A DNA stretch of 64,000 nucleotides, taken from the NCBI RefSeq assembly GCF_028368995.1, contig NZ_JAQNDL010000001.1:2144001-2208000 (forward strand), in the 5' to 3' direction. A program made the position numbers and the translations under genes. Below the pieces are notes generated by a model, which was given only the letters and a program-made list of their open reading frames with translations, was not told the DNA's origin and did no database searches. Below are positions 17,285-46,779 of the stretch, piece by piece. Position 1 is the stretch's first letter; each line of letters begins with the position of its first letter. The stretch comes from Nannocystis bainbridge. GTDB lineage: Bacteria > Myxococcota_A > Polyangia > Nannocystales > Nannocystaceae.

Positions 17285-20023
17285 TCAGAACTCGAGCCGC
17301 ACGCCGAGCGACGGCAAGATCGGCAGGCCGGTCTGCAGCTGGCGCTGCTGCAGGTTGTACGAGTAGACCCACGCCTCGCCGTTCTGGCGGTTGTAGACGT
17401 TGATGATGTCGAGATAGAAGTTCGCCGTCACGCGCTTGAACGTGAAGCGCTTGTCGACGCGCAGGTCGAGCTGGTGGAACGCCGGCAGCCGCCCGTCGCG
17501 GCCGAACCACGGCTCGTAGCCGTCCTGCACGAACGCGCTGTCGAAGTAGGAGACCGACGGGTTGCCGCTGACGAGGCGGAAGCGGCCGCCGATCTGCCAG
17601 CCGCGCGGCAGCTTGTAGACGGCGAGGATGGTGAGGATGTGCGGCTGGTCGAAGCTGAACGGCCGGTAGTCGGCGCCGGGCCGGGCCTGGATCAGGCTCT
17701 TCATCAAGGTGTAGCTGACCCACCCGAACAGCCGCTTGGTCAGCGCCTTGCGGACCAGCAGCTCCATGCCGAAGATCTGGCCGGTGCCCTGGTTGGCGAA
17801 GTTCTCGAGCCGGATGTCGCCCGAGACCGGGTCGCGCATCAGCACGCTCGAGGAGGTCGAGCGGTCGAACACGTACTTGTAGAATCCGGTGACCTCGGCC
17901 TCGATGCCGACGCTGTCGAACACCTGGGCCACGCCGAGGCTGGTGTGGACCGCCCGCTCGATGCCCGAGCGCGGGTTGCCCCACACCGGCGCGAGGCTGA
18001 TGAGGTCGGGGATCTGGCTGTAGAGGCCGACGCCGCCCTTGACCGCCGTGTTCTCGCCGACCTGCCAGTTGAAGCGCACGCGCGGGTCGACCGTGGCCTT
18101 CTTGATCTGCAGCGCGTAGTAGGTCACGCGCGCGCCGGGGTAGATCGTGAACTTCTCGCCGAGGCCGATCGTCGCCGTGGTGTAGATCGCCGGCGTGGCG
18201 TAGTTCTGGCCGATGTCGGCGACGTTGTAGACGCCGGTGTCGCCGGTCCCGGCCCCCGCCGGCACGCCCGGCGCGCGGGCCCCGATCTCGTAGCGACCGG
18301 CCTGCAGCTCGGTGCCGACGCGGATCGCCGCTCGCTTGCTCAGCTGCCGCGACGCCTCGGCGCGCCAGCTGAACTCGTACTTGGGGAAGTTGAAGGTGAA
18401 GAGCCCGCCGAACGCGCCCGACAGCGACTGGTAGTTGATCGACGGCGTGATCAGGAAGTCCCACGGCCCGTCCTGCTTGCGGTAGACGAGGTCGAGCCGG
18501 TGGAACAGGATCGCCGTGCGCGCCTGGTTCTCCGAGCCCGTCATCGTCTCGTTCGGGCCCTGCGCGATCACCCGCAGGCGGTCGTCCGAGCCGAACCACC
18601 GCACCGACAGCTCGCCGCCGCCGACCGGGTAGTCGAACAGGAACTGATAATCATAGTAGCGCGGCGCCTGCGACAGCCCGAGGCCGATGTCTTTCGGCAG
18701 CGCCGCCTTGAGGATCGCGTCGACGTAGCTGCGGCGGAAGCTGGTGACGAAGCTGCCCTTCTTGATCGGGCCCTCGAGCATGATCCCGGCGTCGAACACG
18801 TCGGCGTCGACGTAGCCGTGGTAGCCGTCGCGTCGGCCCTTGCGCGGGTTGACGTTGATGATGCCGCCGATCGCGTCGCCGAACCGGCTGTCGAAGTTGC
18901 CGGGGATGAAGTCGATCTGCGCGAGGATGTCGGAGTTGAAGGTCGACGACAGGGCCCCGAAGTGGAACAGCTGCGGGATCTCGTGGTAGCCGAGGTACGT
19001 CTTCGAGTCGCCGGGCGCGGCGCCGCGGATGATCAGCAGGCCGAGGCCGAACGGCGCCCGCGCGACGCCGGGGAAGTTCTGCAGCGACTTGAGCGCGTCG
19101 CCCTGCGTGCCCGGCAGGTTGAAGATCTCCTCCGGCGTGATGGTGCGACGCGCGACCTCTTCACGGGCGTCGCGGCGCTGCTTCACCACCGTGCGGAACG
19201 GGTTCGACACCAGCCGCCGGGCGAAGTACTTGACCTCGAGCAGGTCGCCCTTGGCCAGCTCCTCGACCACCTCGTAGCGGTCGAAGCCCTGCGCCAGGGC
19301 GATGATGCGGACCTTGCCGTCGGGCACGCCGCGCAGCTCGAACGAGCCGTCGGGGGCGGTCTCGGCGCGCATGGTCCAGGCCGGTTCGGGCTCGTCGCCG
19401 TAGATCTTTTTGGTGACCTGTCCCACCGGCCAGTCCGGCGGCGCGGGCACCACGAGCACGCTCGCGCCCGACACCGGGACGCGCTGGCCGGCCTCGAGCA
19501 GCACGCCGCGCAGCCGCACCGGACCTGTCCCTTGGGACTGCTGGGCGGGTTCGCCCGCGTCGGTCTCGGGCTCGCCGGCGTCGACCTCGGGCTCGCGGTC
19601 CGCGGGCTCCGGCGGCAGCGGCGGCGGGGCGGCGATGTCGATGCCGACCTTGAGCACCACCTCGATCGGCCGGCCCTTGTAGAGCCCGGGCGTGTAGCGC
19701 AGCTGGGCCACGGCGGACTTGGCGAGCGCGTCGAGCTCGGGGTGCACGCTCTGCACGACCTCGAGCTCTTTCGGCACCCCGTCGACGCCGACCACCAGCT
19801 TGACGACGACCTGTCCCTGCGGCGGCGCGGGCAGGCGGCGCAGATCTTCGGGGTACTCGAGCTCGACGCTGTTCTGCAGCGCCGGCTGGACCAGGTCGGC
19901 CGGGTCCTGCGCACGCGCGGAACCGGCGTGCAGCGCCGCGGCCAGGGTCAGCACCGCGCCCAGGCCGTGCAGGCCGGCGGTCCCGATCCGGAGGCTGGCG
20001 AGGCGGCGAGGTCGCGGGCGCAA
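17285..20023 (-). CDS. TonB-dependent receptor with N-terminal TonB C-terminal-like and carboxypeptidase-regulatory-like domains
   Basis: YPE..QGQVVVKLVVGVDG (TonB_C); plug LPGTQGDALKSLQNFPGV..IIRG; C-terminal LGVRLEF. Start uncertain: TTG at 20023 chosen for the GGAG upstream and the signal peptide ending ARA. Confidence 0.85.
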   Translation of the reverse strand: MRPRPRRLASLRIGTAGLHGLGAVLTLAAALHAGSARAQDPADLVQPALQNSVELEYPEDLRRLPAPPQGQVVVKLVVGVDGVPKELEVVQSVHPELDALAKSAVAQLRYTPGLYKGRPIEVVLKVGIDIAAPPPLPPEPADREPEVDAGEPETDAGEPAQQSQGTGPVRLRGVLLEAGQRVPVSGASVLVVPAPPDWPVGQVTKKIYGDEPEPAWTMRAETAPDGSFELRGVPDGKVRIIALAQGFDRYEVVEELAKGDLLEVKYFARRLVSNPFRTVVKQRRDAREEVARRTITPEEIFNLPGTQGDALKSLQNFPGVARAPFGLGLLIIRGAAPGDSKTYLGYHEIPQLFHFGALSSTFNSDILAQIDFIPGNFDSRFGDAIGGIINVNPRKGRRDGYHGYVDADVFDAGIMLEGPIKKGSFVTSFRRSYVDAILKAALPKDIGLGLSQAPRYYDYQFLFDYPVGGGELSVRWFGSDDRLRVIAQGPNETMTGSENQARTAILFHRLDLVYRKQDGPWDFLITPSINYQSLSGAFGGLFTFNFPKYEFSWRAEASRQLSKRAAIRVGTELQAGRYEIGARAPGVPAGAGTGDTGVYNVADIGQNYATPAIYTTATIGLGEKFTIYPGARVTYYALQIKKATVDPRVRFNWQVGENTAVKGGVGLYSQIPDLISLAPVWGNPRSGIERAVHTSLGVAQVFDSVGIEAEVTGFYKYVFDRSTSSSVLMRDPVSGDIRLENFANQGTGQIFGMELLVRKALTKRLFGWVSYTLMKSLIQARPGADYRPFSFDQPHILTILAVYKLPRGWQIGGRFRLVSGNPSVSYFDSAFVQDGYEPWFGRDGRLPAFHQLDLRVDKRFTFKRVTANFYLDIINVYNRQNGEAWVYSYNLQQRQLQTGLPILPSLGVRLEF

Positions 20024-20286
20024 GCGGCAGGAGCATGCTCCAAGCCCGGCGCCCCTGGCTAGTGCCGCCGAAGCCGGCGCGCGCGGTCTGGCCGGCGTGC
20101 GCACGGCCGGGAAGCCCGGGCCCCACCTCCTGCGTAATGTCTCTTCCCGGGGCTTGCCTCGGCGTCCCACCGGACAATCGTTCCCCTGCGGGGTCGAAAG
20201 CCGCGCCGACGCGGCAAGGCCGCTGGCCCCCGGTGGTACACTCGTAACGGCTCCCTGCGGCCCGTTGGCCGCGCAGCTCCGCTCCC

Positions 20287-22530
20287 ATGCGCTCCTTCGG
20301 CTGGCTTCACTTCACGGACCTCCACCAGGGCCTCGACGCCCAGGGCTGGCTGTGGCCGGGCGTCCGCGAGGTCCTGCTGGCCGACCTCGAGAAGCTGCAC
20401 GCCCGCTGCGGCCCGTGGGACCTGGTCCTGTTCAGCGGCGACCTGACCCAGCGGGGCAGCGCCGCCGAGTTCGCGCGCCTCAACCAAACCCTGCAGCAGC
20501 TGTGGGATCACCTCCGCGCCCTCGGCTCGACCCCCGCGCTGGTGACCGTCCCCGGCAACCACGACCTCATCCGCCCCGACCCGCGCCGCCCCGAGTCGCT
20601 GGTGCTCGGCCGCTGGGACACCTATCCCGAAGTTCAGGTCGAGTTCTGGCGCGACGCCAGCTCGCCCTACCGCGCCCTCGTCGACCAGGCGTTCGCGCCG
20701 TACAGCGACTGGCTCAAGAGCCACCCGTTCGCCGGCCTGCAGCTGCAGCGCGGCATGCTGCCCGGCGACTGCTCGGCGGTGCTGGCCAAGGACGGGCTCA
20801 AGCTCGGCGTCGTCGGCCTCAACAGCGCCTTCTTGCAGCTCGGCGATGGCGACTACACCGGCAAGCTCGCGCTCGACGTCCGCCAGCTGCACGCGGCCTG
20901 CGGCGGCGACGGCCCGGCGTGGGTCAAGGAGTGCGACTTCGCGTTGCTGATGACGCACCACCCGCCGACCTGGCTGCAGGCCAAGGCCCGCGACGAGTTG
21001 GTCGCCGAGATCGCCCCGCCCGGGCGGTTCGTCGCTCACGTCTACGGCCACATGCACGAGCACGCGAGCAGCGTGATCGCCATCGGCGGCGCGCAGGGTC
21101 GGCGCGAGCTCCAGGGCAGCTCGCTGTTCGGCCTCGAGGTCTACGGCGGCAAGGTCGATCGCCGCCACGGCTACACCGCCGCGCGCATCACCGTCGACGA
21201 CAACAACGAGGCGACCTTGCGGCTGTGGCCGCGCGTCGCCAAGAAGCACGCCGCCGGTCACTGGCGCGTCGTCCAGGACCTCGACGCCTTCGAGCTCGGC
21301 GACGATCAGGGCACCCGGCCCGAGCCGCTGCCGCCGCCGCGTCGGCGCACGCCCCCGCCTCCGCCCCCGCCCCCGGTCAACCCGGCCAACCTGGTCGCCA
21401 CCGGACCTGTCCTTTCGGCCAGCACGTCCGGATCGCACCCTTCGATCTCGCAGACCGCCCCGATCCCGCTCGGCGTGATCACCTCGCTGTCGGGCGGCGC
21501 GCCCGGCGACTCGGGCATCTTCTACTCGTCGATCGCCGCCCGCGTGCAGCCACCGGGCGCGCCCTACAACATCAACTGGCACGTCCACCGCGCCGAGGAG
21601 GAGCGCACCGCGCTCAACTACCTCGATCAGCCGGGCGCGCCGGTCGTGCTGTGGGGCCCCGACAAGTTCGGCAAGACCTGGATGTCGCAGTTCTTGACCG
21701 ACATGGTCTACCAGGCCGACGGCGGCGCATGCCGGGTCGTCGCCATCAACCTCGACACCTTCGACTACGAGTCGCGCAGCGACTACGGCAACTTCATCCG
21801 CGAGTTCGCGTTCCAGATCGTCGGCTCGATCGGCGGCCCCGAGGACTGGGTCCCGACCTTGTGGAAGTCGCCGGGCAGCGTCAACCAGAAGCTCGGCCGG
21901 CTGATGCGGGACAACGTGCTGCCGCTGGCGAGCACGCGGGTGATCCTCGCGCTCGACCGCGTCGACGCCGTGTGGGGCCTGCCGTTCAAGGACGACTGGT
22001 TCGGCATGCTGCGCGCGTGGGCCGAGGATCCGCGGCTGGAGAAGCTGCGGCTCGTGCTCGGCATCAGCACCACGCCGCGGCGGTTGATCGAGCGGACCAC
22101 GCAGTCGCCGTTCAACCTGAGCCCGCCGATCGTGCTCGGTGACCTCACGCGCGAGCAGGTCGAGAACCTGTCGCAGCTGTACGGGCTCGACTGGACGCCG
22201 CAGGACTTCGGCGCGCTGATGAGCCTCGTCGGCGGGCACCCCTACCTCGTACGCCTGGCCATGCACAGGGCCAACCTCGCCGGCGGGCTGTCGGCGCGCG
22301 AACTGCTGGCCGAGCCGTCGAACCTGTTCGACGACTTCCTCCAGCGCTACGCGCGGCGCCTCCACCTCCACCCCGAGATGATGGCCGGCGTGAAGCGGCT
22401 GCGCAGCGACGCGCTGGCGGAGCTCGACTCCGACGCCTCGGCCGCGCTCGAGAGCAGCGGCATCGCCGTCGAGGAGAAGGTCGGCTTCTACCGCCTGCGC
22501 TATCGGCTGTACGAGCGGCTGCGGCCATGA
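20287..22530 (+). CDS. Calcineurin-like metallophosphoesterase fused to an AAA-like (AAA_35/STAND-type) P-loop domain
   Basis: Phosphoesterase motifs TDLH, SGDL, GNHD, THHP, GHMH; Pro linker; GPDKFGKT Walker A; LALDRVD Walker B; GGHPYL. Confidence 0.85.
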   Translation: MRSFGWLHFTDLHQGLDAQGWLWPGVREVLLADLEKLHARCGPWDLVLFSGDLTQRGSAAEFARLNQTLQQLWDHLRALGSTPALVTVPGNHDLIRPDPRRPESLVLGRWDTYPEVQVEFWRDASSPYRALVDQAFAPYSDWLKSHPFAGLQLQRGMLPGDCSAVLAKDGLKLGVVGLNSAFLQLGDGDYTGKLALDVRQLHAACGGDGPAWVKECDFALLMTHHPPTWLQAKARDELVAEIAPPGRFVAHVYGHMHEHASSVIAIGGAQGRRELQGSSLFGLEVYGGKVDRRHGYTAARITVDDNNEATLRLWPRVAKKHAAGHWRVVQDLDAFELGDDQGTRPEPLPPPRRRTPPPPPPPPVNPANLVATGPVLSASTSGSHPSISQTAPIPLGVITSLSGGAPGDSGIFYSSIAARVQPPGAPYNINWHVHRAEEERTALNYLDQPGAPVVLWGPDKFGKTWMSQFLTDMVYQADGGACRVVAINLDTFDYESRSDYGNFIREFAFQIVGSIGGPEDWVPTLWKSPGSVNQKLGRLMRDNVLPLASTRVILALDRVDAVWGLPFKDDWFGMLRAWAEDPRLEKLRLVLGISTTPRRLIERTTQSPFNLSPPIVLGDLTREQVENLSQLYGLDWTPQDFGALMSLVGGHPYLVRLAMHRANLAGGLSARELLAEPSNLFDDFLQRYARRLHLHPEMMAGVKRLRSDALAELDSDASAALESSGIAVEEKVGFYRLRYRLYERLRP

Positions 22531-25500
22531 CCCCGCCACATCCGAGCTCGGGCGCGGGTCTCCACGGCGCCCAGTTCCAGGTCGGCGGCGCGGTCCAGGC
22601 CGGCGCCTTTTACATCGAGCGCAAGGCCGACCGCGAGCTGCTCAGCGCGCTGATGCGGGGCGAGTTCTGCTACATCCTCGCCCCGCGGCAGATCGGCAAG
22701 ACCAGCCTGCGCGTGCGCGCGGCCAAGCGGCTGCAGGGCGGCGGCGTCCGCTGCGTCAGCATCGACCTCACCAACATCGGCTCGACGCTGGTCTCGATCG
22801 ACGACTGGTACTTCAGCATCGCCCTCGAGATCGCCGAGGCGATGGGCCTGCCGAGCCCCGAGCTGTTCTGGAGCACCCACCAGAACCTCACCCCCGTCCA
22901 CCGCTGGTACCGCTTCCTCCGCAACGAGCTGCTCGACCGCACCGAGGCGCCGATCGTCGTCTTCATCGACGAGGTCGAGTCGGTGCAGGCGCTGCCGTTC
23001 AGCGCCGACGACTTCTTCGCCTCGATCCGCTCGGCCTTCAACCTGCGGGCCGAGGACCTGGCCTACGAGCGCCTCACCTTCTGCCTCCTCGGCGTCGCCG
23101 CCCCCGCCGACCTGATCTCCAACTCGGTCCGCACCCCGTTCAACATCGGCCGCGAGATCCGCCTCGAGGACTTCTCGCGCGGCGAGCTCGACGCCTTCCG
23201 GCCTGGCCTCGAGGGCCTGGGCGGCAGCCCCGACGCCCTGCTCGACGCCGTGTACGCCTGGACATCTGGCCATCCGTACATGTCCCAAAGGCTATGCGAC
23301 GACCTGGTCCGGCGCGGCCCGGTCAGCGACAAGACCGAGGCCGAGCGGGTCGACGACTCGGCCTACACCCTGTTCCTGCGCAACGGCCGGACCGCCGACG
23401 CCAACCTCGCCTACGCCGAGAAGCGGCTCAACGCCAACGCCTCGCGGGAGCGCTCGCGCGACCTGCTCGACCTCTACCGCCGGCTCCTCAGCGGCGAGCC
23501 GGCGCCGGCCGAGCCGAACAACCCGCTGCAGATCGAGCTGCGCCTGACGGGGCTCGCGGCCGAGGCGCGCGGCGAGCAGGGCGACATCCACCTGCAGGTC
23601 CGCAACCTCGTGTTCGCCGAGGTCTACGACCACAAGTGGCTGCGCGAGCGAGAGAAGGAGCAGCGGCTGGCCGAGTTCGTGGCCCGCTGGGAGGGCAAGG
23701 GCCGCCAGGACGACTACCTGCTGCGCGGCACGGCGCTCGAGGACGCGCTGGCGTGGTCGCACGGGCGCAGCGACCTGACCCTCGGCGACCACGAGTTCCT
23801 GCTCGCCGGCCTCAACTTCGCCCGCCGCGAGGCCGAGGCGCGCCACCGGCTCGAGGAGGCCGCGCGCATGCAGGAACAGGCCCGCCTGGCCGCGCTCGAG
23901 GAGCAGCGCAAGGCCGAGCGCGAGCGCTACCGGGCCGACATCGAGCGAGAGCGGCGCGAGCGGGCCGAGGAGGGCGCCGTCTCGCAGCGGCGCACCATCT
24001 CGATCCTCACCGGCACCGTCGCCACCCTCGGCCTCCTGCTGGCCCTCACCGTGTGGCAGTTCGTGGTCGCCGAGCAGAGCAAGGACCAGCTGTCGCGGAT
24101 CTCCGAGCGTCGCAACGAGGACGCCCGGCTCGACCGCCTCGGCGCCGACGCCCTCCTCTACGCCCAGCAGCCCGGCAAGGAGCGCGACGCCCTGCTGACC
24201 GCGATCAAGGCCGCCGCCGACGCGCTCGCCCGCGACGGCGAGGTCCCGCCGCGCGTCATGCAGGGCCTGGCCGCCGCGGTCGCCACCCCGGTCCAGCGGC
24301 CGCTGGTGCTGCGCCACGCCGAGGCCGTGCACGGGGCCCACTTCTCGCACGACGGCACCCGCGTGCTCACGGCCAGCAAGGACGGCACCGCCCACCTGTG
24401 GGACGCCGTCTCGGGCAAGACGATCCGCGTGCTCGAGCACGCCGCGCCTGTCCTTTCAGCCAGCTTCTCGCGCGACGACACCCGCATCTTCAGCGTCGGC
24501 GCCGACAAGAGCGCGCGGCTGTGGAACGCCGCCACCGGCGACAACCTCGAGGAGTACAAGAACGTCGCCGTCCCGCCGCAGCGGATGATCGCCGGCCTGG
24601 CCGACAACGGCTACAGCGTCTACTTCCTCGGCGTCGACCGCGGCGCCCACCTGGTCGACATCCGCGGCAACAAGGCGCGCGACCTGCCGCGCACCCTCAG
24701 CGGCAACGTCACCGCGATCGCCCTGGCCGACGGCGAGCCGCTGGCGGCCACCGGCGGCAGCGACGGCGTCGTGCGCCTGTGGGACCTCGACACCGGCGAG
24801 CTCCAGATCGAGCTGAAGCGGCACAAGGGCAACGTCGCCGCGGTGCTGCTGTCGCCGCTCGGCGGCCGGCTCGTCAGCGTCGGCGAGGACGGCGACGCCC
24901 GCGTGTGGACCACCGCCGGCGCCGCGGTCGCGACCCTCCAGCACGGCGATCCTGTCCTCGGGGCCAGCTTCTCCGCCAGCGGCGACCGCTTGCTGACGTG
25001 GAGCCTGGCGCGGGCGGTCGTGTGGTCGAGCGCCGGCAAGCAGCTGGCCAGCCTCACCGACCCGCGCGAGCTGCTCAAGCAGGCCGCCTTCTCGCCCGAC
25101 GACCGCCGCGTCGCCACCGTCGGCGCCGGCACCGGCGGCGGCGCGGGCACGGCGGTCAAGCTGTGGGACCCGGTCAAGGGCGAGGTCGCGGCCACCCTCA
25201 CCGGTCACACGGGACAGGTCCTTTCGGTCAGGTTCTCGCTCGACGCCTCGCGCGTGCTGACGACCAGCGAGGACAACACCGCCCGGCTGTGGAACAGCGC
25301 CGGCGGCCAGCCGCTGGCCACCCTCGAGGGTCACACGGCGCCCGTGCTGGCCGCCGAGTTCTCGCCCGACGGCGCCCGGATCCTCACCGTCGGCGGCGAC
25401 AACACCGCGCGGATCTGGGACGGCTCGCTCAACAACGCCGTGCCGACCCTCAAGGGCCACGGCGCCTCGGTGCGGCTGGCCCGCTTCTCGCCCGACGGCA

Positions 25501-26561
25501 GCCGGATCGTCACCACCAGCGACGACAAGACCGCGCGTCTGTGGGACGTCGTCAGCACCCGCAACATCCGCACCCTCGAGGGCCACGGCGGCCCCGTCGT
25601 CGCCGCCGTGTTCGCCGGCGACGGCTCCGGCCGGCTGCTCACCTGGGCCGAGGAGGACTCCAACCTGCGCCTGTGGGACGCCAGCAACGGCGACGAAGTC
25701 GCCGTGCTCGGCCACGCCGGACATGTCCTCGGGGCCAGCTTCTCCCGCGACGGCGCGCGCATCGTCTCGGCCGGCGCCGACGACACCCTGCGCCAGTGGG
25801 ACGCCACCACCGGCGCGGTCGTCGGCGAGCCGTGGCAGGGCACCCGCGGCCAGCAGACCGTCGCCGGCTTCGCCCCCGGCGGCCGCTACGTCGTGCTCGC
25901 CAGCCGCGACAGCAACACCGCCCAGCTGATCGACGTCGAGGCCCAGCGCTTCATCACCGACCTCGTCGGTCACAGCGCCCCGGTCGAGGGCGCCGTGTTC
26001 TCGCCCGACGGCGAGACCGTCGTCACCCTCAGCGCCGACCACACCGCCAAGCTGTGGGTCGCCCGTTACGGCAGCGAGATCGCCACCCTCGACCCTGCCG
26101 CCGGCGCCATCGCCTCGGCCGCGTTCTCGCGCGACGGCGGCCGGCTCGTCCTCGCCACCGCGCGCGACGCCTGGGTGTGGTCGCTCACCGGCCCCGACGA
26201 CCGCCCGCAGGTGCTCGCCACCCTGCTCGGCCACTCCGCCTCGCTGCTCCACGCCACCTTCTCCGTCAACGGTGGGCGCATCGTCACCGCCTCGTCCGAC
26301 AACACCGCCAAGCTGTGGGTCGCCCCCGTCGACTCCTCCAACTACGACTTACTGGCGACGCTGCACGGCCACGCCGCCGCCGTCAACTACGCCGAGTTCT
26401 CGCCCGACGGCCGCAACATCGTCACCGCCGGCCGCGACGGCCGCATCAAGCTGTTCCCGACCTCGGTCGAGGACCTGCTGCGCAAGGCCTGCGACGAGCT
26501 CCGCCCGCACCGCGACGACTACGAGCAGGTCGAGGCCGACTGCCGCCTCGCCGGCGGCTGA
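22527..26561 (+). CDS. AAA-like (AAA_35/STAND-type) NTPase with coiled coil, TM helix and many WD40 repeats
   Basis: YIERKAD..APRQIGKTS, IVVFIDEVE, SGHPY; YLLRG.AL..A..W; TM ILTGTVATLGLLLALTVWQF; repeated GH...V..A.FSPDG.RI.T.S.D.TARLW; ATGA overlap with the upstream gene. Confidence 0.9.
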   Translation: MTPPHPSSGAGLHGAQFQVGGAVQAGAFYIERKADRELLSALMRGEFCYILAPRQIGKTSLRVRAAKRLQGGGVRCVSIDLTNIGSTLVSIDDWYFSIALEIAEAMGLPSPELFWSTHQNLTPVHRWYRFLRNELLDRTEAPIVVFIDEVESVQALPFSADDFFASIRSAFNLRAEDLAYERLTFCLLGVAAPADLISNSVRTPFNIGREIRLEDFSRGELDAFRPGLEGLGGSPDALLDAVYAWTSGHPYMSQRLCDDLVRRGPVSDKTEAERVDDSAYTLFLRNGRTADANLAYAEKRLNANASRERSRDLLDLYRRLLSGEPAPAEPNNPLQIELRLTGLAAEARGEQGDIHLQVRNLVFAEVYDHKWLREREKEQRLAEFVARWEGKGRQDDYLLRGTALEDALAWSHGRSDLTLGDHEFLLAGLNFARREAEARHRLEEAARMQEQARLAALEEQRKAERERYRADIERERRERAEEGAVSQRRTISILTGTVATLGLLLALTVWQFVVAEQSKDQLSRISERRNEDARLDRLGADALLYAQQPGKERDALLTAIKAAADALARDGEVPPRVMQGLAAAVATPVQRPLVLRHAEAVHGAHFSHDGTRVLTASKDGTAHLWDAVSGKTIRVLEHAAPVLSASFSRDDTRIFSVGADKSARLWNAATGDNLEEYKNVAVPPQRMIAGLADNGYSVYFLGVDRGAHLVDIRGNKARDLPRTLSGNVTAIALADGEPLAATGGSDGVVRLWDLDTGELQIELKRHKGNVAAVLLSPLGGRLVSVGEDGDARVWTTAGAAVATLQHGDPVLGASFSASGDRLLTWSLARAVVWSSAGKQLASLTDPRELLKQAAFSPDDRRVATVGAGTGGGAGTAVKLWDPVKGEVAATLTGHTGQVLSVRFSLDASRVLTTSEDNTARLWNSAGGQPLATLEGHTAPVLAAEFSPDGARILTVGGDNTARIWDGSLNNAVPTLKGHGASVRLARFSPDGSRIVTTSDDKTARLWDVVSTRNIRTLEGHGGPVVAAVFAGDGSGRLLTWAEEDSNLRLWDASNGDEVAVLGHAGHVLGASFSRDGARIVSAGADDTLRQWDATTGAVVGEPWQGTRGQQTVAGFAPGGRYVVLASRDSNTAQLIDVEAQRFITDLVGHSAPVEGAVFSPDGETVVTLSADHTAKLWVARYGSEIATLDPAAGAIASAAFSRDGGRLVLATARDAWVWSLTGPDDRPQVLATLLGHSASLLHATFSVNGGRIVTASSDNTAKLWVAPVDSSNYDLLATLHGHAAAVNYAEFSPDGRNIVTAGRDGRIKLFPTSVEDLLRKACDELRPHRDDYEQVEADCRLAGG

Positions 26562-26563
26562 AA

Positions 26564-26902: not shown

Positions 26903-28642
26903 ATGCGCCCTCGCCCGCTCGCCCTCGCCGCCCTCGCGCTGACGCTCGCCGGCGGCTGCCTCAAGATCCCGGCCGAGCCCAAGTCCCCGGAGACAGGTCC
27001 CGAAGGACAGGTCGCGACCCTGGCCTGGCCCGGCGCCGCGATCGACAAGCTGTACCGCCCCGGCGAGGTCCGCGTGTACACGATGATGCAGTCCGGCAAG
27101 CCGATCGGCACCTCGTGGGGCCGCTACGAGGGCCCGGTCGACGGCGAACCCGGCCACTTCCGCTTCGCCACCCGCATCGAGCTGCGCCCGCCCGGCCGCG
27201 ACGGCAAGCCGGCCGAGCCGCTGCGCAGCTCCGGCGAGATCGTCGTCGACGCCCGCGGCGACCTGATCCGCGGCTTCGAGCGCAGCAACGCCGCCGAGCT
27301 GGTGTTCGAGCGCAAGGGCGACGCGCTCCACTTCAACTCCGGCCGCGAACGCGACGAGATCACGTACCGCAGCGGCGACGCGTTCATGGCGTTCTCGGCG
27401 ATCTTCCACGAGGAGCTGATGTTCGGCCTGCGCCGCCTCGAGGCCGGCGAGCTGGCGTGGCGCCTGGTCAGCCTGTCGGGCTCGATGCCGACCGAGTGGA
27501 CGGCGACGCTGACGATCCCCGACCCGGCGGCGCCCGGCCGGGCCACGGTCAAGACCAACCTCGGCGAGACGGTCACGCTGCGCGACGGCCGGATCGAGAA
27601 GGTCCAGATCGAGGCCGACGACGTCGAGATCCAGGTGCCGGTGCAGCCGCCGACCTGGCCCGAGTGGCAGATCGCCGGGCCACCTGTCCTCAAGTACAGC
27701 TCGCTCCCGGGCGCCCGATTCACCCGCCGCGAGGTCGAGCTGCCCGGACGGCCCGGCGAGCCCGCGCTGGCCGGCGAGGTCCTGCTGCCGCCCGGTCCGG
27801 GCCCGTTCCCCGCGGCGCTGCTGCTGCCCGGCACCGGCCAGCAGGACCGCTTCGGCTTCGCCGGCCCGCCGCCGGTCGACCTCGGCAGCCACACGATCAC
27901 CGACGCGCTCGCCGAGGCCGGCTTCGCGGTCCTCCGCTTCGACGAGCGCGGCTTCGGCAGCAGCGCCGACGGCCCGATCTCCTACCTCGGCCAGCTCGAG
28001 GACGCCCGCCGCGCGCTGCGGACCCTGCTGGTCCAGGACGAGGTCGACCCCGACCGCGTGGTCCTCGTCGGCCACGGCGAGGGCGGCTGGAAGGCGCTGA
28101 CGCTGGCCGCCGAGGACCCGAGCGTCAAGGCGGTGGCGCTGCTGGCCACGCCCGGCCGCCCGTACGAGCAGATCCTGCGGGCGCAGGGCGAGGCGGCCCT
28201 GCAAGCGGTGCCGCCCCAGCTCCGCGACGACGCCCGCAAGACCCAGAACAAGACGCTGCAAGCGCTGAAGACCGGCCACGGGGTGCCGCCGGAGCTGGCG
28301 GCGCAGGCGCTGTGGGTGCGGGAGATCCTTCAAGTCTCGCCGGAGGCGCTGATCGCCGGCAGCGAGGCGCCGCTGTGGATCGCGCAGGGCAACAAGGACT
28401 TCGAGGTCGACCCGAACCGCGACCCCCAAGAGCTGGTGAAGCTGGCCAAGCGCCGCAAACGCAAGGCCGAGCTGCGCTCGTTCGCCGACCTCGACCACCT
28501 TTTTAAACCCGAGCCCGAGAACTCCAACCCGGCCCGCTACCTCGACGCCGCCCGCACCGTCGACCACGCGTTCCTCGGCCAGCTTACGACCTGGCTGCAA
28601 GGCCAGATCAAGGCCGCGCCCGCCAAACCGCGCGGCAATTGA
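26903..28642 (+). CDS. Lipoprotein with C-terminal alpha/beta hydrolase (S9-like) domain
   Basis: MRPRPLALAALALTLAGGC lipobox; GPGPFPAALLLPG, RFDERG, DLDHLF; GHGEGG at the nucleophile elbow has Gly where Ser is expected. Confidence 0.8.
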   Translation: MRPRPLALAALALTLAGGCLKIPAEPKSPETGPEGQVATLAWPGAAIDKLYRPGEVRVYTMMQSGKPIGTSWGRYEGPVDGEPGHFRFATRIELRPPGRDGKPAEPLRSSGEIVVDARGDLIRGFERSNAAELVFERKGDALHFNSGRERDEITYRSGDAFMAFSAIFHEELMFGLRRLEAGELAWRLVSLSGSMPTEWTATLTIPDPAAPGRATVKTNLGETVTLRDGRIEKVQIEADDVEIQVPVQPPTWPEWQIAGPPVLKYSSLPGARFTRREVELPGRPGEPALAGEVLLPPGPGPFPAALLLPGTGQQDRFGFAGPPPVDLGSHTITDALAEAGFAVLRFDERGFGSSADGPISYLGQLEDARRALRTLLVQDEVDPDRVVLVGHGEGGWKALTLAAEDPSVKAVALLATPGRPYEQILRAQGEAALQAVPPQLRDDARKTQNKTLQALKTGHGVPPELAAQALWVREILQVSPEALIAGSEAPLWIAQGNKDFEVDPNRDPQELVKLAKRRKRKAELRSFADLDHLFKPEPENSNPARYLDAARTVDHAFLGQLTTWLQGQIKAAPAKPRGN

Positions 28643-28743: not shown

Positions 28744-28823
28744 GAGCATGTCCCCTTTGACATGCACTCGTGGACATGCCCTCGCGGACATGTCCCTTCG
28801 CGCATGCCCTTCAGGCCATGTTT
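28744..28823. repeat. 14-bp-phased array, 6 units
   Basis: Units at 28744, 28758, 28772, 28786, 28800 and 28814, between convergent stops. Confidence 0.9.
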
Positions 28824-28825
28824 TT

Positions 28826-34273: not shown

Positions 34274-34353
34274 GGACATGTCCACCCGGACATGTCCCTT
34301 TCGACATTTCTCTCACGACATGTCGATGAAGACATGTCCGATCGGCCATCTCC
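34274..34353. repeat. 14-bp-phased array, 6 units
   Basis: Units at 34274, 34288, 34302, 34316, 34330 and 34344, between convergent stops. Confidence 0.9.
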
Positions 34354-34365: not shown

Positions 34366-35871
34366 TCACCCCGACGCCCGCAGGCGCAGCGCCGCGGCTG
34401 CCTCCTCGCGGTCGTCGAAGTGCAGCTTGGTCGTCCCGACGACTTGATAGTCCTCGTGCCCCTTGCCCGCGATCACCACCACATCCTCGACGCCCGCCTC
34501 CGCGACCGCGCGGGCGATCGCCGCGCGGCGGTCGACCTCCGGCACCACCCGGTCGCGGCGGCTGGCCGGCACGCCGGCCAGCATCTGCGCCACGATCGCC
34601 GCCGGATCTTCCGTGCGCGGGTTGTCGGAGGTCGCGTAGAAGCGATCGGCCAGGGTCGCCGCGAACTCGCCCATCGGCGCCCGCTTGCCTGGATCGCGAT
34701 CGCCGCCGCAGCCCAGCACCACGAACAGCCGGCCGCTGCAGGCCCGCCGCACCGCTTGCAGCGCCCGCGCCACCGCGTCGGGCGTGTGCGCGTAGTCGAC
34801 GAGCACCGTCGGCCCGCGCGCGCCCGCCACCGTCACCCGCTCGAGCCGCCCCGGCGCCCCGCGGCACTCCGCCAGCGCCGCCGCGATCGCCGGCGGCTCC
34901 AGCCCCAGCCCCAGCCCCAGCCCGATCGCCACCAGCAGGTTGTCGAGGTTGAACGCCCCGACCAGCGGCGAGCGCAGCGCCAGCGGCCCCGCCGGCGTGT
35001 CCACGCGCGCCGTCAGACCTGTGCTTTCGGACATCACCGAAGACGCCACGATCTCCGCCCCCGGCAGCCCGCCGCGCGACGCTCGCCACACCTGCGACCC
35101 GGCCGGCGCCGCCGCCAAGAATTGCTGCGCCGCCGGCTGCTCGTCGACCGCCGCCACCACCACCCCGCCGGCCCGCAGGTGCTCTGCCGGCAGCAGGCAC
35201 TTGGCCGCCAGGTACTCGGCCATCGTCGCGTGGAAATCGAGGTGGTCCTGCGAGAAGCTGGTCAGCCCGGCCGCGTCGTAGCGCAGCGGCTTCGCCCGGC
35301 CCTGCGCCAGCGCGTGCGACGACACCTCCATCACCGCGTCGGTCGCCCCGCGCTCGCGCGCCCGCGCCAGCAGCTCCTGCAGCTCGAGCGGGAACGGCGT
35401 GGTGAAGGCCGCCGTCTCCTCGCGGTCGCCGACCCAGTTGCCCGTCGTACCGATCCGCGCGTGCTTGCGCCCCGCGGCCGCCAGCATCGCCGCGACCAGG
35501 AACGTCACCGTCGTCTTGCCGTTGGTCCCCGTCACGCCCGCCAGGCGCAGGTGCTCGCCGGGCTCGCCCCAGGCGCGCGCACACAGCCGCGGCAGCGCGT
35601 CGGCGATCGCCGGCAGCTCGACCCGCGGCTCCGGCTGCGGCGCCGCCAGCCGCCCGCGCTCGACGATCGCCAGCGCCGCGCCTGCCGCCAGCGCCGCCGG
35701 CACGAACGCGTGCCCGTCGTGTGCCAGCCCCGGCACCGCCACGAACGCCGCGCCGGGGACCACCCGCCGCGAATCGACGACCAGCCGCGCGACCGCCGTC
35801 TCCGGCCCGCAGCCGTGGTAGCTCGCGTCTTCACCGGCGAGCAGGGCGCCGAGGCGCAGCGTGTCGGACAT
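34366..35871 (-). CDS. murE: UDP-N-acetylmuramoyl-L-alanyl-D-glutamate--2,6-diaminopimelate ligase
   Basis: DSRRV.PG, GVTGTNGKTT, MEVSSHAL, DHLDFH, VDYAHTPDA, GCGGDRD, DNPR (DAP specificity), AGKGHE. Confidence 0.95.
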   Translation of the reverse strand: MSDTLRLGALLAGEDASYHGCGPETAVARLVVDSRRVVPGAAFVAVPGLAHDGHAFVPAALAAGAALAIVERGRLAAPQPEPRVELPAIADALPRLCARAWGEPGEHLRLAGVTGTNGKTTVTFLVAAMLAAAGRKHARIGTTGNWVGDREETAAFTTPFPLELQELLARARERGATDAVMEVSSHALAQGRAKPLRYDAAGLTSFSQDHLDFHATMAEYLAAKCLLPAEHLRAGGVVVAAVDEQPAAQQFLAAAPAGSQVWRASRGGLPGAEIVASSVMSESTGLTARVDTPAGPLALRSPLVGAFNLDNLLVAIGLGLGLGLEPPAIAAALAECRGAPGRLERVTVAGARGPTVLVDYAHTPDAVARALQAVRRACSGRLFVVLGCGGDRDPGKRAPMGEFAATLADRFYATSDNPRTEDPAAIVAQMLAGVPASRRDRVVPEVDRRAAIARAVAEAGVEDVVVIAGKGHEDYQVVGTTKLHFDDREEAAAALRLRASG

Positions 35872-35949: not shown

Positions 35950-36348
35950 CTCGCCTGTCCCTTCAGTCAGCTCCTCGCAATGCCCGCTCGCCCGCCCGCC
36001 CGCAGATCCGGCCGCGCTCGCGGACATGCTCGATCGGACATGCCCCGGCGCCGCTGCTCGCCTGTCCTTCAGTCAGCTCCTCGCAGCGCGGCCGAGCGCG
36101 GGAGACGATGCCCAGCCGCGCTCGCACACATGCCCGGCGCCGGTTCTCGCCTGTCCCTTCAGTCGGCTCCTCGCAGCACGGCCGAGCGCGGGAGACGATG
36201 CCCGGCCGCGCTCGCGGACATGCCCGGCGCCGCGCCTCGCCTCGCCCTTCAATCAGCTCCTCGCAATGCCCACGATTCACCCCTCAACGGCCGAACGCGG
36301 GTGGCGAAACCCGGCCGCGCTCAAGGACATGCCCGATCGGACATGCCC
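35950..36348. repeat. Four imperfect 89-107-bp tandem units upstream of murE
   Basis: Units start at 35950, 36057, 36146 and 36236: ctcgcctgtcccttcagtcagctcctcgca-[variable]-ccggccgcgctcgcggacatgc. Confidence 0.85.
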
Positions 36349-36441
36349 CAAGGGGCATGCCATCATGAACATGTCCCCCGCGCCATCTCCCCACATTCGA
36401 TCTCGCTGATTTTTAAAGGACATGTCCCGGAGGACATGCCT
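36325..36441. repeat. 14-bp-phased array, 5+2 units
   Basis: Units at 36325, 36339, 36353, 36367 and 36381, then 36418 and 36432. Confidence 0.88.
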
Positions 36442-36448
36442 TTAATCA

Positions 36449-37808: not shown

Positions 37809-37935
37809 GCCGCCGTCACGTGTGATCTCGGTCGCTGCGCCAGCTTACGCCGGCCGGGCCGCGCAGCCGGACGCCGCGGCGCACGCGCCAGAGGCCCGTT
37901 TCCGCGATCCCTGTCTCTTGCGCCAGGAGCCCGGC

Positions 37936-38751: not shown

Positions 38752-39000
38752 CGTCCGGAGGTTTCCCGCCACCACCCCGTGATAGCGATTCCCGCCCCGC
38801 CTCGCAAAGCGCGCTCCGCGACCGACCCTCTCCGCTCGTGGACAGGCGAACGCAGTTCACTCGCGCAGACCGATCGATGCAACTGCAACCGAGGTCTCCC
38901 GGCCTCTTGACGGGCCGCGGCAGTGCCCGGGCCCGAAAGCCCCGGCCCGCCGCCCGGCGCCGGCCCGGGCCAGCCCTGCGCGGGGCGCACCGGGACTTCA

Positions 39001-39052
39001 GGACATGTCCTTGCGGACACCTCGTCCGGGACATGTCCCGGAGGACATGTCC
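39001..39052. repeat. 14-bp-phased array, 4 units (three perfect GGACATGTCC)
   Basis: Units at 39001, 39015, 39029 and 39043, just past the stop of the minus-strand protease gene. Confidence 0.92.
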
Positions 39053-39065
39053 CGCGAGCCAGCCC

Positions 39066-40478
39066 CTAGTTCGGCTTCTTGGCGTAGAACTTGTACGCCC
39101 CGGCGCCGCTGTACGACTGGATCAGCCACGTGTAGTGGCCCGCGGTCCCGTTGTACTTGACGGTCTCGTTGGTCGAGGCCGTCTCGGCCTTGGCGACCAC
39201 CGCCCACGCGCTGCCGTTCCACTTGTAGAGCAGCAGGTCGAAGTCGGTGCCGGCCGGCCCGACCAGGTAGCCCTCGTGCGCGCCCGCGCCGTTGCTCGTG
39301 TAGTAGCTGGCGTTCGGGTGCTGGTCGCTGTCGCCGCTGCCGGACAGCGAGCCGCTGTACTCGGTGCAGCCGGTGCACGGCACGTCCGCCGGCGGCGGCG
39401 GCGGCGGCGGCGGCGGATTGCCCCCGCCCTGGTACGGCGAGCCGCACGTCGCGCTGTACGCCCCGTTCGGCGCGCCCGCGTTGCAGCCGCCGCTCCACGT
39501 GTCGTTCACGCTGCCCGGATTGGTCTGGAAGTTGAAGCACTTGGGCCCCGGGTTCCAGGTGCCGTTGGCGTCGTGGCACGGCGTCAGATCGATCGCCGTC
39601 TGCTGCTCGAACCACGCGATGCCCTTGTGCATCATCGAGTACATGCCGCCGCTGCCGCACGCCCCGCCGTACGAGGTGATGCCGAACACGCGCCATGTCC
39701 CATCGGCCAGCTTGATGAACGCCGGCCCGCCGGAGTCGCCCTGACAGGTGTCCTTGCCGTTGCCGCCGATCGAGATCTCGTCGCCCTGGAACCCGTTGAT
39801 CGTCGTCGTCACCTGGCGCTTCACGCCGTAGGGCCCGTTGTCGGCGTTGCCGAAGCCGACCAGCGTGACCTGCTTGCCGGGCTGCAGGTTGCTCGTCTCG
39901 CAGCCCATCAAGATCGGCACGATCGGCACGTCGGTGACCGGCGTCGAAAGCTTGCACACCGCGAAGTCGTTGCCCGAGCCCGGCTGGCCGCCCGGATAGA
40001 TCTTGCACCACTGCGGCGTGACCGACTTGGCCGCCGCCGTGTACTTCTCGCCGAAGTAGATCTTGTTGTAGCTGGCGCCGCAGTGGGCGGCGTAGATGAC
40101 CACCTGCGGGTCGACCAGCGTGCCCGTGCACGAGCCGCCGAGCTCGACCGTCGACGCCCAGCCGCACACCGGCACCGTCGTGCCGCCGTAGATGGCCTCG
40201 CCGTCCTGCTCGTCCGCCGACGAGAATTCGTCGCTCGCCTCGTCGGCGCCCGGCGCCGGCGGTGGGTCGTCCACGCCCGCGAACAGCTCCGCGTGGCTGA
40301 GGATCTTCGGCTGGCCGGCGTCGGTGAAGTCGGCCTCGGCGACCGCGAGGTCGACGCTGTCGAGCTCGGCGTCGCTCTCGACCTCCGGATCGCATCCGCC
40401 CGCGATCAGCGCGAGCATGGAGAGCGGTGTGAGCAGTACGGTCGAGCGATGCTTCCGGGCAATGAGGCGATGCGTCAT
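39066..40478 (-). CDS. Trypsin-like (S1) serine protease lipoprotein with C-terminal PPC-like domain
   Basis: IAGGC lipobox; IYGG mature start, CTGTLV..YAAHC, NDFA, CQGDSGGP; poly-Pro linker; GTDFDLLLYKW. Confidence 0.92.
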   Translation of the reverse strand: MTHRLIARKHRSTVLLTPLSMLALIAGGCDPEVESDAELDSVDLAVAEADFTDAGQPKILSHAELFAGVDDPPPAPGADEASDEFSSADEQDGEAIYGGTTVPVCGWASTVELGGSCTGTLVDPQVVIYAAHCGASYNKIYFGEKYTAAAKSVTPQWCKIYPGGQPGSGNDFAVCKLSTPVTDVPIVPILMGCETSNLQPGKQVTLVGFGNADNGPYGVKRQVTTTINGFQGDEISIGGNGKDTCQGDSGGPAFIKLADGTWRVFGITSYGGACGSGGMYSMMHKGIAWFEQQTAIDLTPCHDANGTWNPGPKCFNFQTNPGSVNDTWSGGCNAGAPNGAYSATCGSPYQGGGNPPPPPPPPPADVPCTGCTEYSGSLSGSGDSDQHPNASYYTSNGAGAHEGYLVGPAGTDFDLLLYKWNGSAWAVVAKAETASTNETVKYNGTAGHYTWLIQSYSGAGAYKFYAKKPN

Positions 40479-41026
40479 GGCGGCGTCCTTGTCGATGAAC
40501 GTGGTCGATGAATGGGGTCGGTCGATCGCGGCGCGGAGCCGCGGAGCCGGGGCTTCACGCGCCCGGGCGCGCCAGGTCCGAACGTGCCAGTGACACCAAT
40601 TCCTGCCCCCACCTCATTCGGCAGGTACGACTCGGAAACAGGGTATATCGCTGCACAGGCACACGAATCCTAGCTCATCCCTTCGCTATCCCGACCGCCC
40701 ACACTCCGTCAAGAAGAATCGCGGACCGGGCCCATGGCCCCCACATGGGGGCCCACAGCACGCAGCCGCGACCCACAACGATTATTCGGTGTGCGCATCG
40801 GCAATGGCACGGCCGTGCTTCGCGCAGCTCGCTCGATTGCAGCTGCACGAACACCGAACCCGACGTCGCACGACGCGCCCCGCGCAGCGCGCTCGGCGGA
40901 TCCGAGCCGCGCAATGTCGTCACGCCCCCTCGCGCATCCCGCTCCGGCGCGACCGCGGCGAGCCGCGTGATGACGTCATCGCCGCAGCCGCGACATCGCG
41001 CACAGGCATCGACGCGAACCTCCGCG

Positions 41027-42169: not shown

Positions 42170-42404
42170 CCGCACGCCCGCAAGCATGGCCTGCGGCCCC
42201 TGTTTCGCCACCGACCTCTCGCCGACGCCCGCCCCGTGAATGCGCCACGACGCCCCGCGCGGCGACCACGAGCCCGGCGCGGGGCTCGAGCAGCGCCTCG
42301 CCGCCGCTCGCTCGAAGCGCTGCCCGGCTCGCTGCAATCCGGGCAGCTCCCCGACCGAGCGAGCGTCCTCCCGTGATTGCCTCTATACCGAAAGCGAACC
42401 CGAC

Positions 42405-45829: not shown

Positions 45830-46779
45830 GACCGCCGCTCCCGGCCTCCACGCGCCCGCTCGACCGCCCCGCGATCGGGGTACGCCTGCTGCGACCCGTA
45901 GGCCGTCACCGCCAGGCTCGACACCGCCGCCGCGAACTTGACCGCCTGCAGCAGCTCCTGCCGCTCGAGCAGCGCCACCCCGAGCGCCCCCGCGAACGCG
46001 TCGCCCGCCCCCGTCTTGTCGACCACCGGCACCGCCAGCGGCCGCACGATCTCCTGCTGGTCCGCCGTCACCAGCGCCGTCCCGCCGGCGCGCAGCTTGA
46101 CGCACGCGACCGCGACCCCGCGGGCCAGCAGCTGCTCGCCGGCGCGAATCGCATCCTCGTCGGTCTGGACGTCGAGCCCGATGAGCCCGCGCGTCTCCTC
46201 GGGGTTGGGGGTGACGACATCGATCATGGCGTAGAGGTCGTCCTCCATGTTGCCGGCCGGCGACGGATCGAGCACCACCTTGAACCCTCGCTCACGCGCC
46301 GCTTTGGCGGCCGCGCGCACGACGTCGATCGGCACCTCGAGGTCGACGGTCAGCACCGAGCCCGCCGGCGCCGCCGCGATGACCTTCACCACCGCCTCGG
46401 CGTCGCCGGCCTGCCACGCCTCGTTGGCGTTCGCCGCCAGCAGGATGGTCTTGTCGCCGTCGTCGTCCCGCACCACGATCATCGCCAGCGCCGTCGCCTG
46501 CCCGGCGACCCGCTTCACGTGCGAGACGTCGACCCCGACCTCCCGCGGCCCGCGCAGCACCTCGTCGGCGAAATCGTCGTCCCCGACATGACCCAAAAGA
46601 CAGGCATTTACGCCGAGCCTCCGGCCCAGGAACGCGCGATTGGCCGCCTTGCCCCCGCCCGTGCGCAGCAGGTCGCGGACCGGCAACGTCTCGCCCGGCC
46701 CGGGCCAGCGGTCGGCGCGGACCTGCAGGTCGAGGTTGATGCTACCCAGCGCGAGCAACAGCGGTGAATCGTTCGTCAT
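45826..46779 (-). CDS. PfkB-family carbohydrate kinase (ribokinase-like)
   Basis: LGSINLDL, GGKAANRA, TPNPEE, DKTGAGDAF. Confidence 0.9.
   Translation of the reverse strand: MTNDSPLLLALGSINLDLQVRADRWPGPGETLPVRDLLRTGGGKAANRAFLGRRLGVNACLLGHVGDDDFADEVLRGPREVGVDVSHVKRVAGQATALAMIVVRDDDGDKTILLAANANEAWQAGDAEAVVKVIAAAPAGSVLTVDLEVPIDVVRAAAKAARERGFKVVLDPSPAGNMEDDLYAMIDVVTPNPEETRGLIGLDVQTDEDAIRAGEQLLARGVAVACVKLRAGGTALVTADQQEIVRPLAVPVVDKTGAGDAFAGALGVALLERQELLQAVKFAAAVSSLAVTAYGSQQAYPDRGAVERARGGRERRS

Follow-up and report, generated by a model that had tools for sequence, protein, structure and literature searches.

The stretch analysed here, referred to as the window, comprises 64,000 nucleotides (64 kb) of the genome of Nannocystis bainbridge, a member of the Myxococcota (contig NZ_JAQNDL010000001.1, positions 2,144,001 to 2,208,000 of the forward strand), and has a G+C content of 72%. 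A gene model built from codon log-likelihood placed 45 genes in it, with a G+C content at third codon positions (GC3) mostly of 0.92-0.98, and 35 of the 45 predicted proteins had a Pfam match at E<=1e-5 (our count from the match table). They include WD40 and AAA_35 proteins, proteins with thrombospondin-type repeats, MurE and a class B penicillin-binding protein. The element under study is the dyad-symmetric word TGTCC-N4-GGACA, which occurs exactly 11 times in the window, compared with 0.06 occurrences expected from dinucleotide shuffles. All 11 exact sites are intergenic and none lies in a coding sequence (CDS). The intergenic copies form head-to-tail arrays of 14-bp units, CATG[TC]CC-nnnn-GGA, which in the window usually start no more than a few bases from a stop codon. 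In window CDS, 14 sites deviate from the word at one position and 24 at exactly two. The first-pass annotation had described the same site as embedded in coding regions, quoting eight codon strings. All eight were found at their coordinates, within genes, on both strands and in different frames, so that near-matches in CDS are real; however, none of the window examples is exact, each carrying one or two mismatches.

Relatives were sampled by scanning species-representative genomes for the array dimer GGACATGTCC-N4-GGACATGTCC, which yielded 78 loci. Seventy-five of these belong to Nannocystis and its relatives (N. pusilla, N. exedens, N. punicea, N. radixulma, sp. RBIL2, metagenome-assembled genomes (MAGs) assigned to Nannocystis or Nannocystaceae, and one 'Myxococcales' MAG), and the remaining three are single matches in unrelated bacteria, without further sites. 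The loci, of about 20 kb each, were thus chosen for carrying the array dimer, and the genome of the window is absent from the set. Genes in the 75 loci were called with the same author-made model as those of the window (905 CDS, 1.08 Mb), and pooled CDS counts were restricted to positions at least 45 nt from gene ends. Three loci (L018, L066 and L020) are syntenic orthologs of positions 30.3-49.5 kb of the window, with 84-91% identity.

The word in coding sequences

Synonymous-codon shuffling of the window CDS gave an expectation of 2.25 (plain shuffles) or 1.37 (dinucleotide-preserving shuffles) for sites with at most one mismatch, compared with the 14 observed, and none of 500 shuffles reached 14 under either null. 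The excess was confined to this class, two-mismatch sites being at expectation. Among the 7-mers enriched in an agnostic k-mer scan of the window CDS, ACCTGTC/GACAGGT ranked first (17 versus 5.3) and GGACAGG/CCTGTCC seventh (16 versus 5.0). Pooled CDS held 83 exact sites, about 6-7 of which look to us like orthologous or paralogous duplicates, versus 4.2 expected and a maximum of 8 in 100 dinucleotide-preserving synonymous shuffles; sites with one mismatch numbered 184 versus 56 and sites with two mismatches 449 versus 434. Exact sites were some 20 times as frequent as in synonymous shuffles and some 170 times as frequent as after permutation of codon order. Since the latter gave an expectation of only 0.48, the encoded peptides themselves are biased toward the word. 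Enrichment was seen in all frames, with 53 versus 3.0 sites in frame 2 (xxT GTC Cnn nnG GAC Axx), 25 versus 1.0 in frame 1 and 6 versus 0.18 in frame 0, and was present in every cultured species sampled. Outside the seed arrays, the density of exact sites was 0.05-0.28 per kb, or about one per 4-20 kb.

Three controls on the pooled CDS were independent of any null model. When the distance between the arms was varied from 0 to 15, the N4 spacing alone was enriched (83 versus 4.5), all other spacings yielding one site at most. Among the 1024 dyads composed of a 5-mer, N4 and its reverse complement, TGTCC-N4-GGACA was the sole outlier, the next best reaching 50 versus 30. The half-sites alone were not enriched in CDS (TGTCC 613 versus 439, GGACA 997 versus 1087). 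A fuller half-site consensus reads [AG][CG][AC]TGTCC, its flank part corresponding to the end of a neighbouring unit. Most other one-mismatch variants were enriched 2- to 12-fold in the pooled CDS. CGTCC-N4-GGACA, a single transition from the word, was 3.6-fold rarer than expected (6 versus 21.9), with T replacing C at position 1; this depletion may result from strong selection for T at that position or from a context-specific C-to-T process at CpG.

Exact sites lie in clearly coding context, GC3 being at least 0.88 in both 24-codon flanks for 55 of the 83. They are spread over 63 genes of many families, and 27 of them fall within the best Pfam stretch of their protein according to our hand mapping, for example in amidase, protein kinase, Mur ligase, GH77, GH92 and histidine-kinase ATPase domains. 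No positional bias along genes was detected in the pooled CDS, where isolated sites are evenly spread. Among the pooled exact sites, 94 were in CDS and 217 were intergenic, the latter count being raised by the seed dimers through which the loci had been chosen.

The frequency of A/T at third codon positions, 4.9% across the window and the 75 loci, served as a baseline for codon usage around the sites. At third positions left free by the pattern, A/T rose to 26% in the spacers of exact sites and to 40% in those of one-mismatch sites, in agreement with the anticipated GC3 dip. At pattern-free positions outside, it amounted to 28-29% at -2 to 0, about 12% at -14 to -9 and 5-6% beyond 15 nt, with peaks at -2, -7 and -13, a 14-nt register that resembles the ghost of a neighbouring unit. 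In frame 2, position 1 carried T in 53 of 58 cases (~91%), compared with the 4.9% genome-wide usage of A/T at third positions. In-gene sites force A/T-ending codons that are otherwise avoided. Viewed from the rare codons, a minority of the runs coincide with sites: 10 of the 49 clusters of A/T-ending codons in the window overlap a site with at most two mismatches, although such sites cover 1.0% of the window CDS. The word therefore accounts for about a fifth of the rare-codon runs and not for all of them, and the link is partly built in, because the word itself contains A/T.

Synonymous bases at the sites are also conserved. In 83 directed, non-independent pairs of orthologs among the loci, A/T synonymous bases in the arms of sites with at most one mismatch were kept in 88 of 94 cases (94%), versus a background of 2295 of 5758 (40%), and A/T third positions in the spacers were identical in 30 of 35. 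The central proposal of the first-pass annotation, a signal at the nucleic-acid level that overrides codon bias in the manner of highly iterated palindrome 1 (HIP1) of cyanobacteria or of DNA uptake sequences (DUS), is accordingly supported by the excess over shuffles, the GC3 dip and the conservation between orthologs.

Sites and arrays in the window and its orthologs

Two in-CDS sites, each with one mismatch, are found at 19419..19432 (TGTCCCACCGGCCA; sense codons GGA CAG GTC) and 19526..19539 (sense codons GGG ACA GGT CCG) in a gene for a TonB_C/outer-membrane barrel protein, 17285-19954(-). They are followed by two genes that overlap by 4 bp and resemble a pair of the STAND type (signal transduction ATPases with numerous domains). 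The first, 20287-22530(+), encodes a Metallophos and an AAA_35 domain and carries a one-mismatch site (CCT GTC CTT TCG GCC) at 21408..21421 in its linker. The second, 22527-26561(+), encodes 1344 aa with AAA_35, a coiled-coil-like stretch and then more than 14 WD40 repeats. Three degenerate units (one, two and two mismatches) lie at 23251..23294 in this gene, on the conserved AAA_35 peptide 'GHPY', where five A/T-ending codons and a rare AGG occur among 12 codons; the Pfam AAA_35 match spans residues 25-260 and thus covers most of this stretch. Further sites in the same gene fall on WD40 repeats, namely at 24449..24462 (two mismatches, peptide PVLSASFS), 24953..24966 (one mismatch, PVLGASFS), 25203..25230 (two adjacent units with two mismatches each, GGA CAG GTC CTT TCG GTC AGG) and 25724..25737 (one mismatch, GGA CAT GTC CTC GGG GCC). 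The strings at 24444, 24953, 25212 and 25719 share the WD40-repeat peptide H-x-x-x-V-L-[SG]-[AV], and because of this common peptide the four or five WD40 examples are not independent.

In gene 26903-28642(+), two adjacent units (two and one mismatches) lie right behind the lipoprotein signal peptide at 26982..27009, and a one-mismatch site follows at 27685..27698. Other one-mismatch sites were located at 30436..30449 in a weakly scored gene with a GatB_Yqey domain, 29878-30579(-), at 31955..31968 in gene 30941-32404(-), at 33644..33657 (CCT GTC TCC AAG GAC A) in gene 33339-34247(+), at 35020..35033 in murE, 34366-35871(-), at 39696..39709 in a trypsin-like gene, 39066-40418(-), and at 63504..63517 in the last codons of gene 63494-63931(-). 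A site with two mismatches lies at 46589..46602 in a gene for a PfkB-family kinase, 45826-46779(-).

Several of these sites could be followed through the syntenic orthologs. In murE, the left part ATGTCC-GAAA is kept in four species, whereas the right arm reads GCACA, GAACA, AGACA or GGACA, the affected residue being S, R, K or R; the site is exact in N. pusilla. The protein region around it aligns without gaps to solved MurE structures (sequences from the Protein Data Bank, PDB). Three orthologs of the PfkB-family kinase gene have the form GCATGTCT-N4-GGACATGTC with one mismatch and the spacers TTTG, CTTG and CCTG, and the copy in the window has drifted to two mismatches. In the trypsin-like gene, the 38 nt shown are identical in all four species. 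The kinase and MurE sites thus differ between species by substitution. The sole change in length seen at in-gene sites is a 12-15-nt in-frame tandem copy at 33644: L018, L066 and L020 contain a second in-frame copy 15 nt downstream, where the alignment has a 12-nt gap in the window. This tandem copy has a period of 15 nt and not 14 (peptide PVSKD-TVSKD), and slippage within the gene appears to be constrained to keep the reading frame. Gene calls in L020 (N. pusilla Na p29) are fragmented compared with those in L018 and L066, murE for instance being called from residue ~100, which suggests frameshift errors in the assembly or real pseudogenes; as a consequence, less CDS was sampled from that genome.

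Since the MurE alignment is gapless and orthologs differ by substitution, the in-gene sites are not inserted elements. They arise by point substitution, both synonymous and amino-acid-changing. An insertion model of the kind that applies to Rickettsia palindromic elements (RPEs) was rejected on the same grounds.

The intergenic arrays were mapped as follows. About seven units with a 14-bp period lie at 2556..2650, directly after the stop codon of gene 2277-2555(+), and about six at 7757..7846 between two genes on the + strand. Five units at 28749..28818 are situated between convergent genes and are followed by a T run. The array at 34274..34348, which includes an exact dimer, separates the convergent genes 33339-34247 and murE. 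Units at 36320..36440, downstream of gene 36449-37402(-), adjoin a 90-bp repeat present in 2.5 tandem copies (36038-36265). A few bases separate the end of the array at 39000..39061 from the trypsin-like gene's stop codon, and the array keeps its position in three other species with varying unit number and spacers. Finally, an array at 61095..61161 directly follows the stop codon of gene 60165-61094(+), and a second unit pair nearby, at 61368-61395, adjoins the stop codon of gene 61410-63476(-). Orthologous arrays in general keep position and arms and differ in unit number and spacers.

The word was also seen in longer intergenic tandem repeats. Each copy of a 93-bp repeat (10285-10467, 2.0 copies) contains one dyad unit and a GC-rich hairpin-like stretch, every copy of the 90-bp repeat contains the left half-site CCTGTCC, and tandem longer units with one exact dyad each lie upstream of murE in L066 (~4320-5060). 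The word therefore also travels in larger repeat units. No exact dyad occurs within 39048-64000 of the window. The region 55523-58562, which has a lower GC content (63-68%) and weak or no gene calls by codon bias, contains a single dyad with one mismatch (55607) and none that is exact; its DNA may have been acquired recently.

Readings of the word and known systems

TGTCC-N4-GGACA is best read as a hyper-abundant, dyad-symmetric genomic word of Nannocystis and close relatives, similar in kind to HIP1 and DUS. We infer that it acts at the level of DNA rather than RNA, because compensatory changes and wobble asymmetry are lacking, the flanks of the half-sites vary independently and the N4 spacing is strict. 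Whether it is in addition a sequence-specific site that is kept by selection and probably bound as duplex DNA by a putative dimeric protein is, judged from sequence, an even call. According to this reading, the word would be read as sequence and not as a mere hairpin, a putative homodimeric protein would contact the two 5-bp half-sites, one fixed spacer apart, on duplex DNA, and purifying selection for that putative binding would keep the sites. Candidate roles include the shaping of the nucleoid (as proposed for HIP1), a mark of self-DNA, DNA uptake and the guiding of a modification, and the arrays at gene ends would additionally form long RNA hairpins when transcribed. A bolder version, which we put forward tentatively and hold to be somewhat less probable, is that Nannocystis independently evolved its own HIP1-type system, in which a putative homodimeric reader, abundant and specific to the genus, would occupy thousands of positions on a chromosome of 11-13 Mb and selection would rewrite synonymous codons and some amino acids.

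Several observations weigh against binding as duplex DNA under selection, and most of them bear on an alternative that we consider unlikely, in which the word functions as a hairpin, formed in RNA or in single-stranded DNA. The arrays would then serve as 3'-end or terminator hairpins of transcripts, and in-gene copies would influence mRNA stability, mRNA processing or the pausing of ribosomes, with the stem sequence imposed by a factor specific for hairpins. Arrays do prefer gene 3' ends: together with exact single sites they reach 4.3 per kb in convergent spacers (137 in 32.2 kb), 1.1 in tandem spacers (148 in 139.3 kb) and 0.45 in divergent spacers (35 in 78.2 kb), an approximately tenfold difference between convergent and divergent spacers, and they often abut stop codons (distance of at most 5 nt in 38 of 144, median 19.5 nt). 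Folding calculations predict that they form strong RNA hairpins (z -3.4 to -5.3 versus shuffles), which become long because two junction palindromes pair, and the array at 28749..28818 has its T run. In tandem intergenic regions, the spacers are partly strand-biased, the sense strand favouring the stable YNCG type (CTCG 22 versus CGAG 7, TTCG 10 versus CGAA 2, TCCG 6 versus 1 on the opposite strand), and in-gene spacers have a raised A/T content at free third positions. As the arms are palindromic, the sense RNA moreover bears the same word, and recognition of RNA or single-stranded DNA is disfavoured rather than refuted. Pairing is not maintained by compensatory or wobble changes in CDS or array units: compensatory double changes were not enriched in CDS (28 versus 28.8), non-consensus Watson-Crick combinations at the most variable pair of the array units, 3-12, numbered 95 versus 117.7 expected, and no wobble asymmetry was detected on the sense strand (T3>C 19 versus A12>G 8; C5>T 25 versus G10>A 17), pair-breaking C.A variants being as enriched as those that keep a wobble pair. 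The flanks of the half-sites were Watson-Crick paired in 38 of 94 cases, versus 41.1 expected, and the loop length is strictly 4. Stable tetraloop classes were not significantly favoured on the intergenic sense strand (41 versus 28, p = 0.15), and in CDS the sense strand held no more of them than the antisense strand (43 versus 52). Most hairpin-binding proteins read the reverse of a conserved stem and a free loop. The two in-CDS sites of the window that were folded were no better than shuffles (z 0.0 and -1.9), and Rfam gave no match at gathering score in the whole window. A stable hairpin at gene 3' ends, the hallmark of a terminator, was hence seen for the arrays and not for the isolated in-CDS sites of the window. 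Given their 3'-end preference, folding and spacer strand bias, the arrays may also act as RNA 3'-end hairpins; the isolated in-CDS sites, being evenly distributed along genes and, in the two cases folded, unstructured, need another explanation. The earlier argument against a purely terminator role, to which the conservation of these isolated sites adds, is therefore reasonable.

The depletion of C at position 1 is the other point of weight, as it could also reflect a context-specific mutation or repair bias. It figures in an alternative of similarly low probability, neutral molecular drive, whether by a repair or conversion bias resembling very-short-patch (VSP) repair, with C-to-T change at CGTCC, or by biased uptake and recombination as for DUS and uptake signal sequences (USS). 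Besides this depletion, the prevalence of T at position 1 in frame 2, the restriction of the word to one genus or family and a ComEC-type competence gene in one locus are consistent with drive. Most sites also lie in the frames of lowest coding cost, as a study on uptake sequences describes for these elements (PMC2817400). Yet most one-mismatch variants are enriched and not drained, the forms with T or C at position 1, taken together, are themselves over-represented, and, unlike known uptake sequences, the word is a strict dyad whose half-sites are not enriched. Conservation in orthologs, here 94% versus 40%, is the criterion by which the HIP1 study preferred selection over biased repair (PMC5861425), although a persistent drive could mimic it. 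The suggestion that a bound protein or base modification shifts local mutation or repair, so that the surroundings drift to A/T, found no support and is given hardly any credence: the A/T increase at free third positions reaches out to ~14 nt from the site, but the raised positions are discrete, follow the 14-nt register (-2, -7, -13) expected of a partial neighbouring unit, and carry bases that are conserved between species (arms 88/94, spacers 30/35) rather than variable. Least probable of all is a secondary origin of the in-CDS matches, either from repeated peptides and paralogous genes (WD40 'H..V.S..FS', AAA_35 'GHPY') or from chance combined with mis-called genes. Four or five window examples do fall on one WD40-repeat peptide, two of them with 21 identical nucleotides in common; still, the excess persists in shuffles that preserve the amino acids (14 versus 1.4-2.3 in the window, 83 versus 4.2 in the pool), the 83 sites are distributed over 63 genes from many families, and the strict N4 spacing and the unique outlier among the dyads need no null model.

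With a selected genomic word as the preferred reading, HIP1 (GCGATCGC) is the closest analogue. Both are clade-restricted, over-represented palindromes that occur in and between open reading frames (ORFs) and are conserved beyond background. HIP1 is a contiguous 8-mer, GCGATCGC, whereas the Nannocystis word is bipartite, a 5-N4-5 dyad whose spacer is free and leans toward A/T; this word also differs in forming head-to-tail 14-bp arrays at gene ends, in its lower density and in its phylum. It is thus an analogue of HIP1 and not HIP1 itself. Periodic spacing along the chromosome (10-90 kb) is a further mark of the HIP1-like class. According to the HIP1 study, the palindrome is over-represented within and between ORFs and conserved across genomes beyond background, its abundance is attributed to selection over biased repair, a chromosome or nucleoid role has been proposed, and twenty years of work have established no function (PMC5861425). 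A link to orphan methyltransferases has been put forward in another report (PMC4390886).

The DUS of Neisseriaceae and the USS of Pasteurellaceae are likewise genus- or family-specific words with hundreds to thousands of copies and a frame-dependent presence in coding regions. They are, however, asymmetric single words that are enriched alone, whereas in Nannocystis only the dyad at fixed spacing is enriched. Inverted DUS pairs have been described downstream of genes. To our knowledge, neither competence nor biased uptake is known for Nannocystis. The cited study describes uptake sequences as frequent in coding regions, where they occur in particular frames and peptides (PMC2817400).

The arrays call to mind repetitive extragenic palindromic sequences (REPs), bacterial interspersed mosaic elements (BIMEs) and REP doublets forming hairpins (REPINs), which share short palindromic units, intergenic clusters mostly at gene 3' ends and a conserved stem sequence. 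REPs are imperfect palindromes of 20-40 nt that are extragenic and spread as DNA copies. In contrast, the Nannocystis unit has 14 bp, is arranged head-to-tail and also occurs as conserved, substitution-made sites inside genes, 83 exact sites lying deep in CDS and 27 of them in the best Pfam stretch, so that the word is not extragenic only. The window Pfam matches included no gene for a REP-associated tyrosine transposase (RAYT, IS200/IS605-like), no search aimed at RAYT having been made. RPEs, which are inserted DNA that adds residues, resemble the word as palindromic repeats inside protein-coding genes that are not destroyed by them, but the MurE site region is gapless against solved structures and orthologs differ by substitution. 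FNR-type boxes, which serve here as a lead only, likewise consist of two inverted 5-bp half-sites with a strict, free 4-bp spacer. Such operators of dimeric factors are present in tens to hundreds of copies per genome, within promoters, whereas the word runs to thousands, is rarest in divergent promoter spacers and forms abutting arrays. No description of the word in bacteria was found in the literature searched, subscription journals being outside its coverage. The combined results support its designation as a new bipartite, array-forming 'selected genomic word' across Nannocystis and close relatives.

Consequences and other genes of the window

Hyper-abundant words that override codon choice are known from few clades, namely HIP1 from cyanobacteria and uptake sequences from Neisseriaceae and Pasteurellaceae. 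The Nannocystis word would constitute a second, unrelated case in very large myxobacterial genomes and an independent system for study, and its strict-spacer dyad points to a dimeric reader. If this is true, the bipartite, spacing-strict and arrayed site should make the reader protein easy to fish by means of an oligonucleotide, and the purpose of genomic words would become testable. Local runs of rare codons that do not signal foreign DNA will be encountered by gene finders and in analyses of codon usage, and synthetic recoding of Nannocystis genes, such as those of natural-product clusters, would erase or create sites.

A number of other genes of the window were noted in passing. Two of them encode eukaryote-like thrombospondin (TSP) modules: the gene at 10447-11802 an OmpA-family protein with TSP type-3 repeats, and the one at 12312-14630 a protein of 772 aa in which numerous DxDxDGWGD-type repeats are combined with a C-terminal thrombospondin domain (Pfam TSP_C, E 3e-19). 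A member of the ASRT family (Anabaena sensory rhodopsin transducer, E 5e-55) is encoded at 46827-47204, within a sugar-metabolism cluster that also comprises GH65, a PfkB-family kinase and a GFO/IDH/MocA oxidoreductase and is kept in three other Nannocystis species. The gene at 52850-55522 encodes a protein of 890 aa without a Pfam match, which ends in a long repeat tail rich in Lys, Ala, Ser, Gly and Thr (AKKSGAKKTAKK...) that is reminiscent of histone H1-like tails and is encoded by tandem DNA repeats of 27-102 bp (52877-53267).

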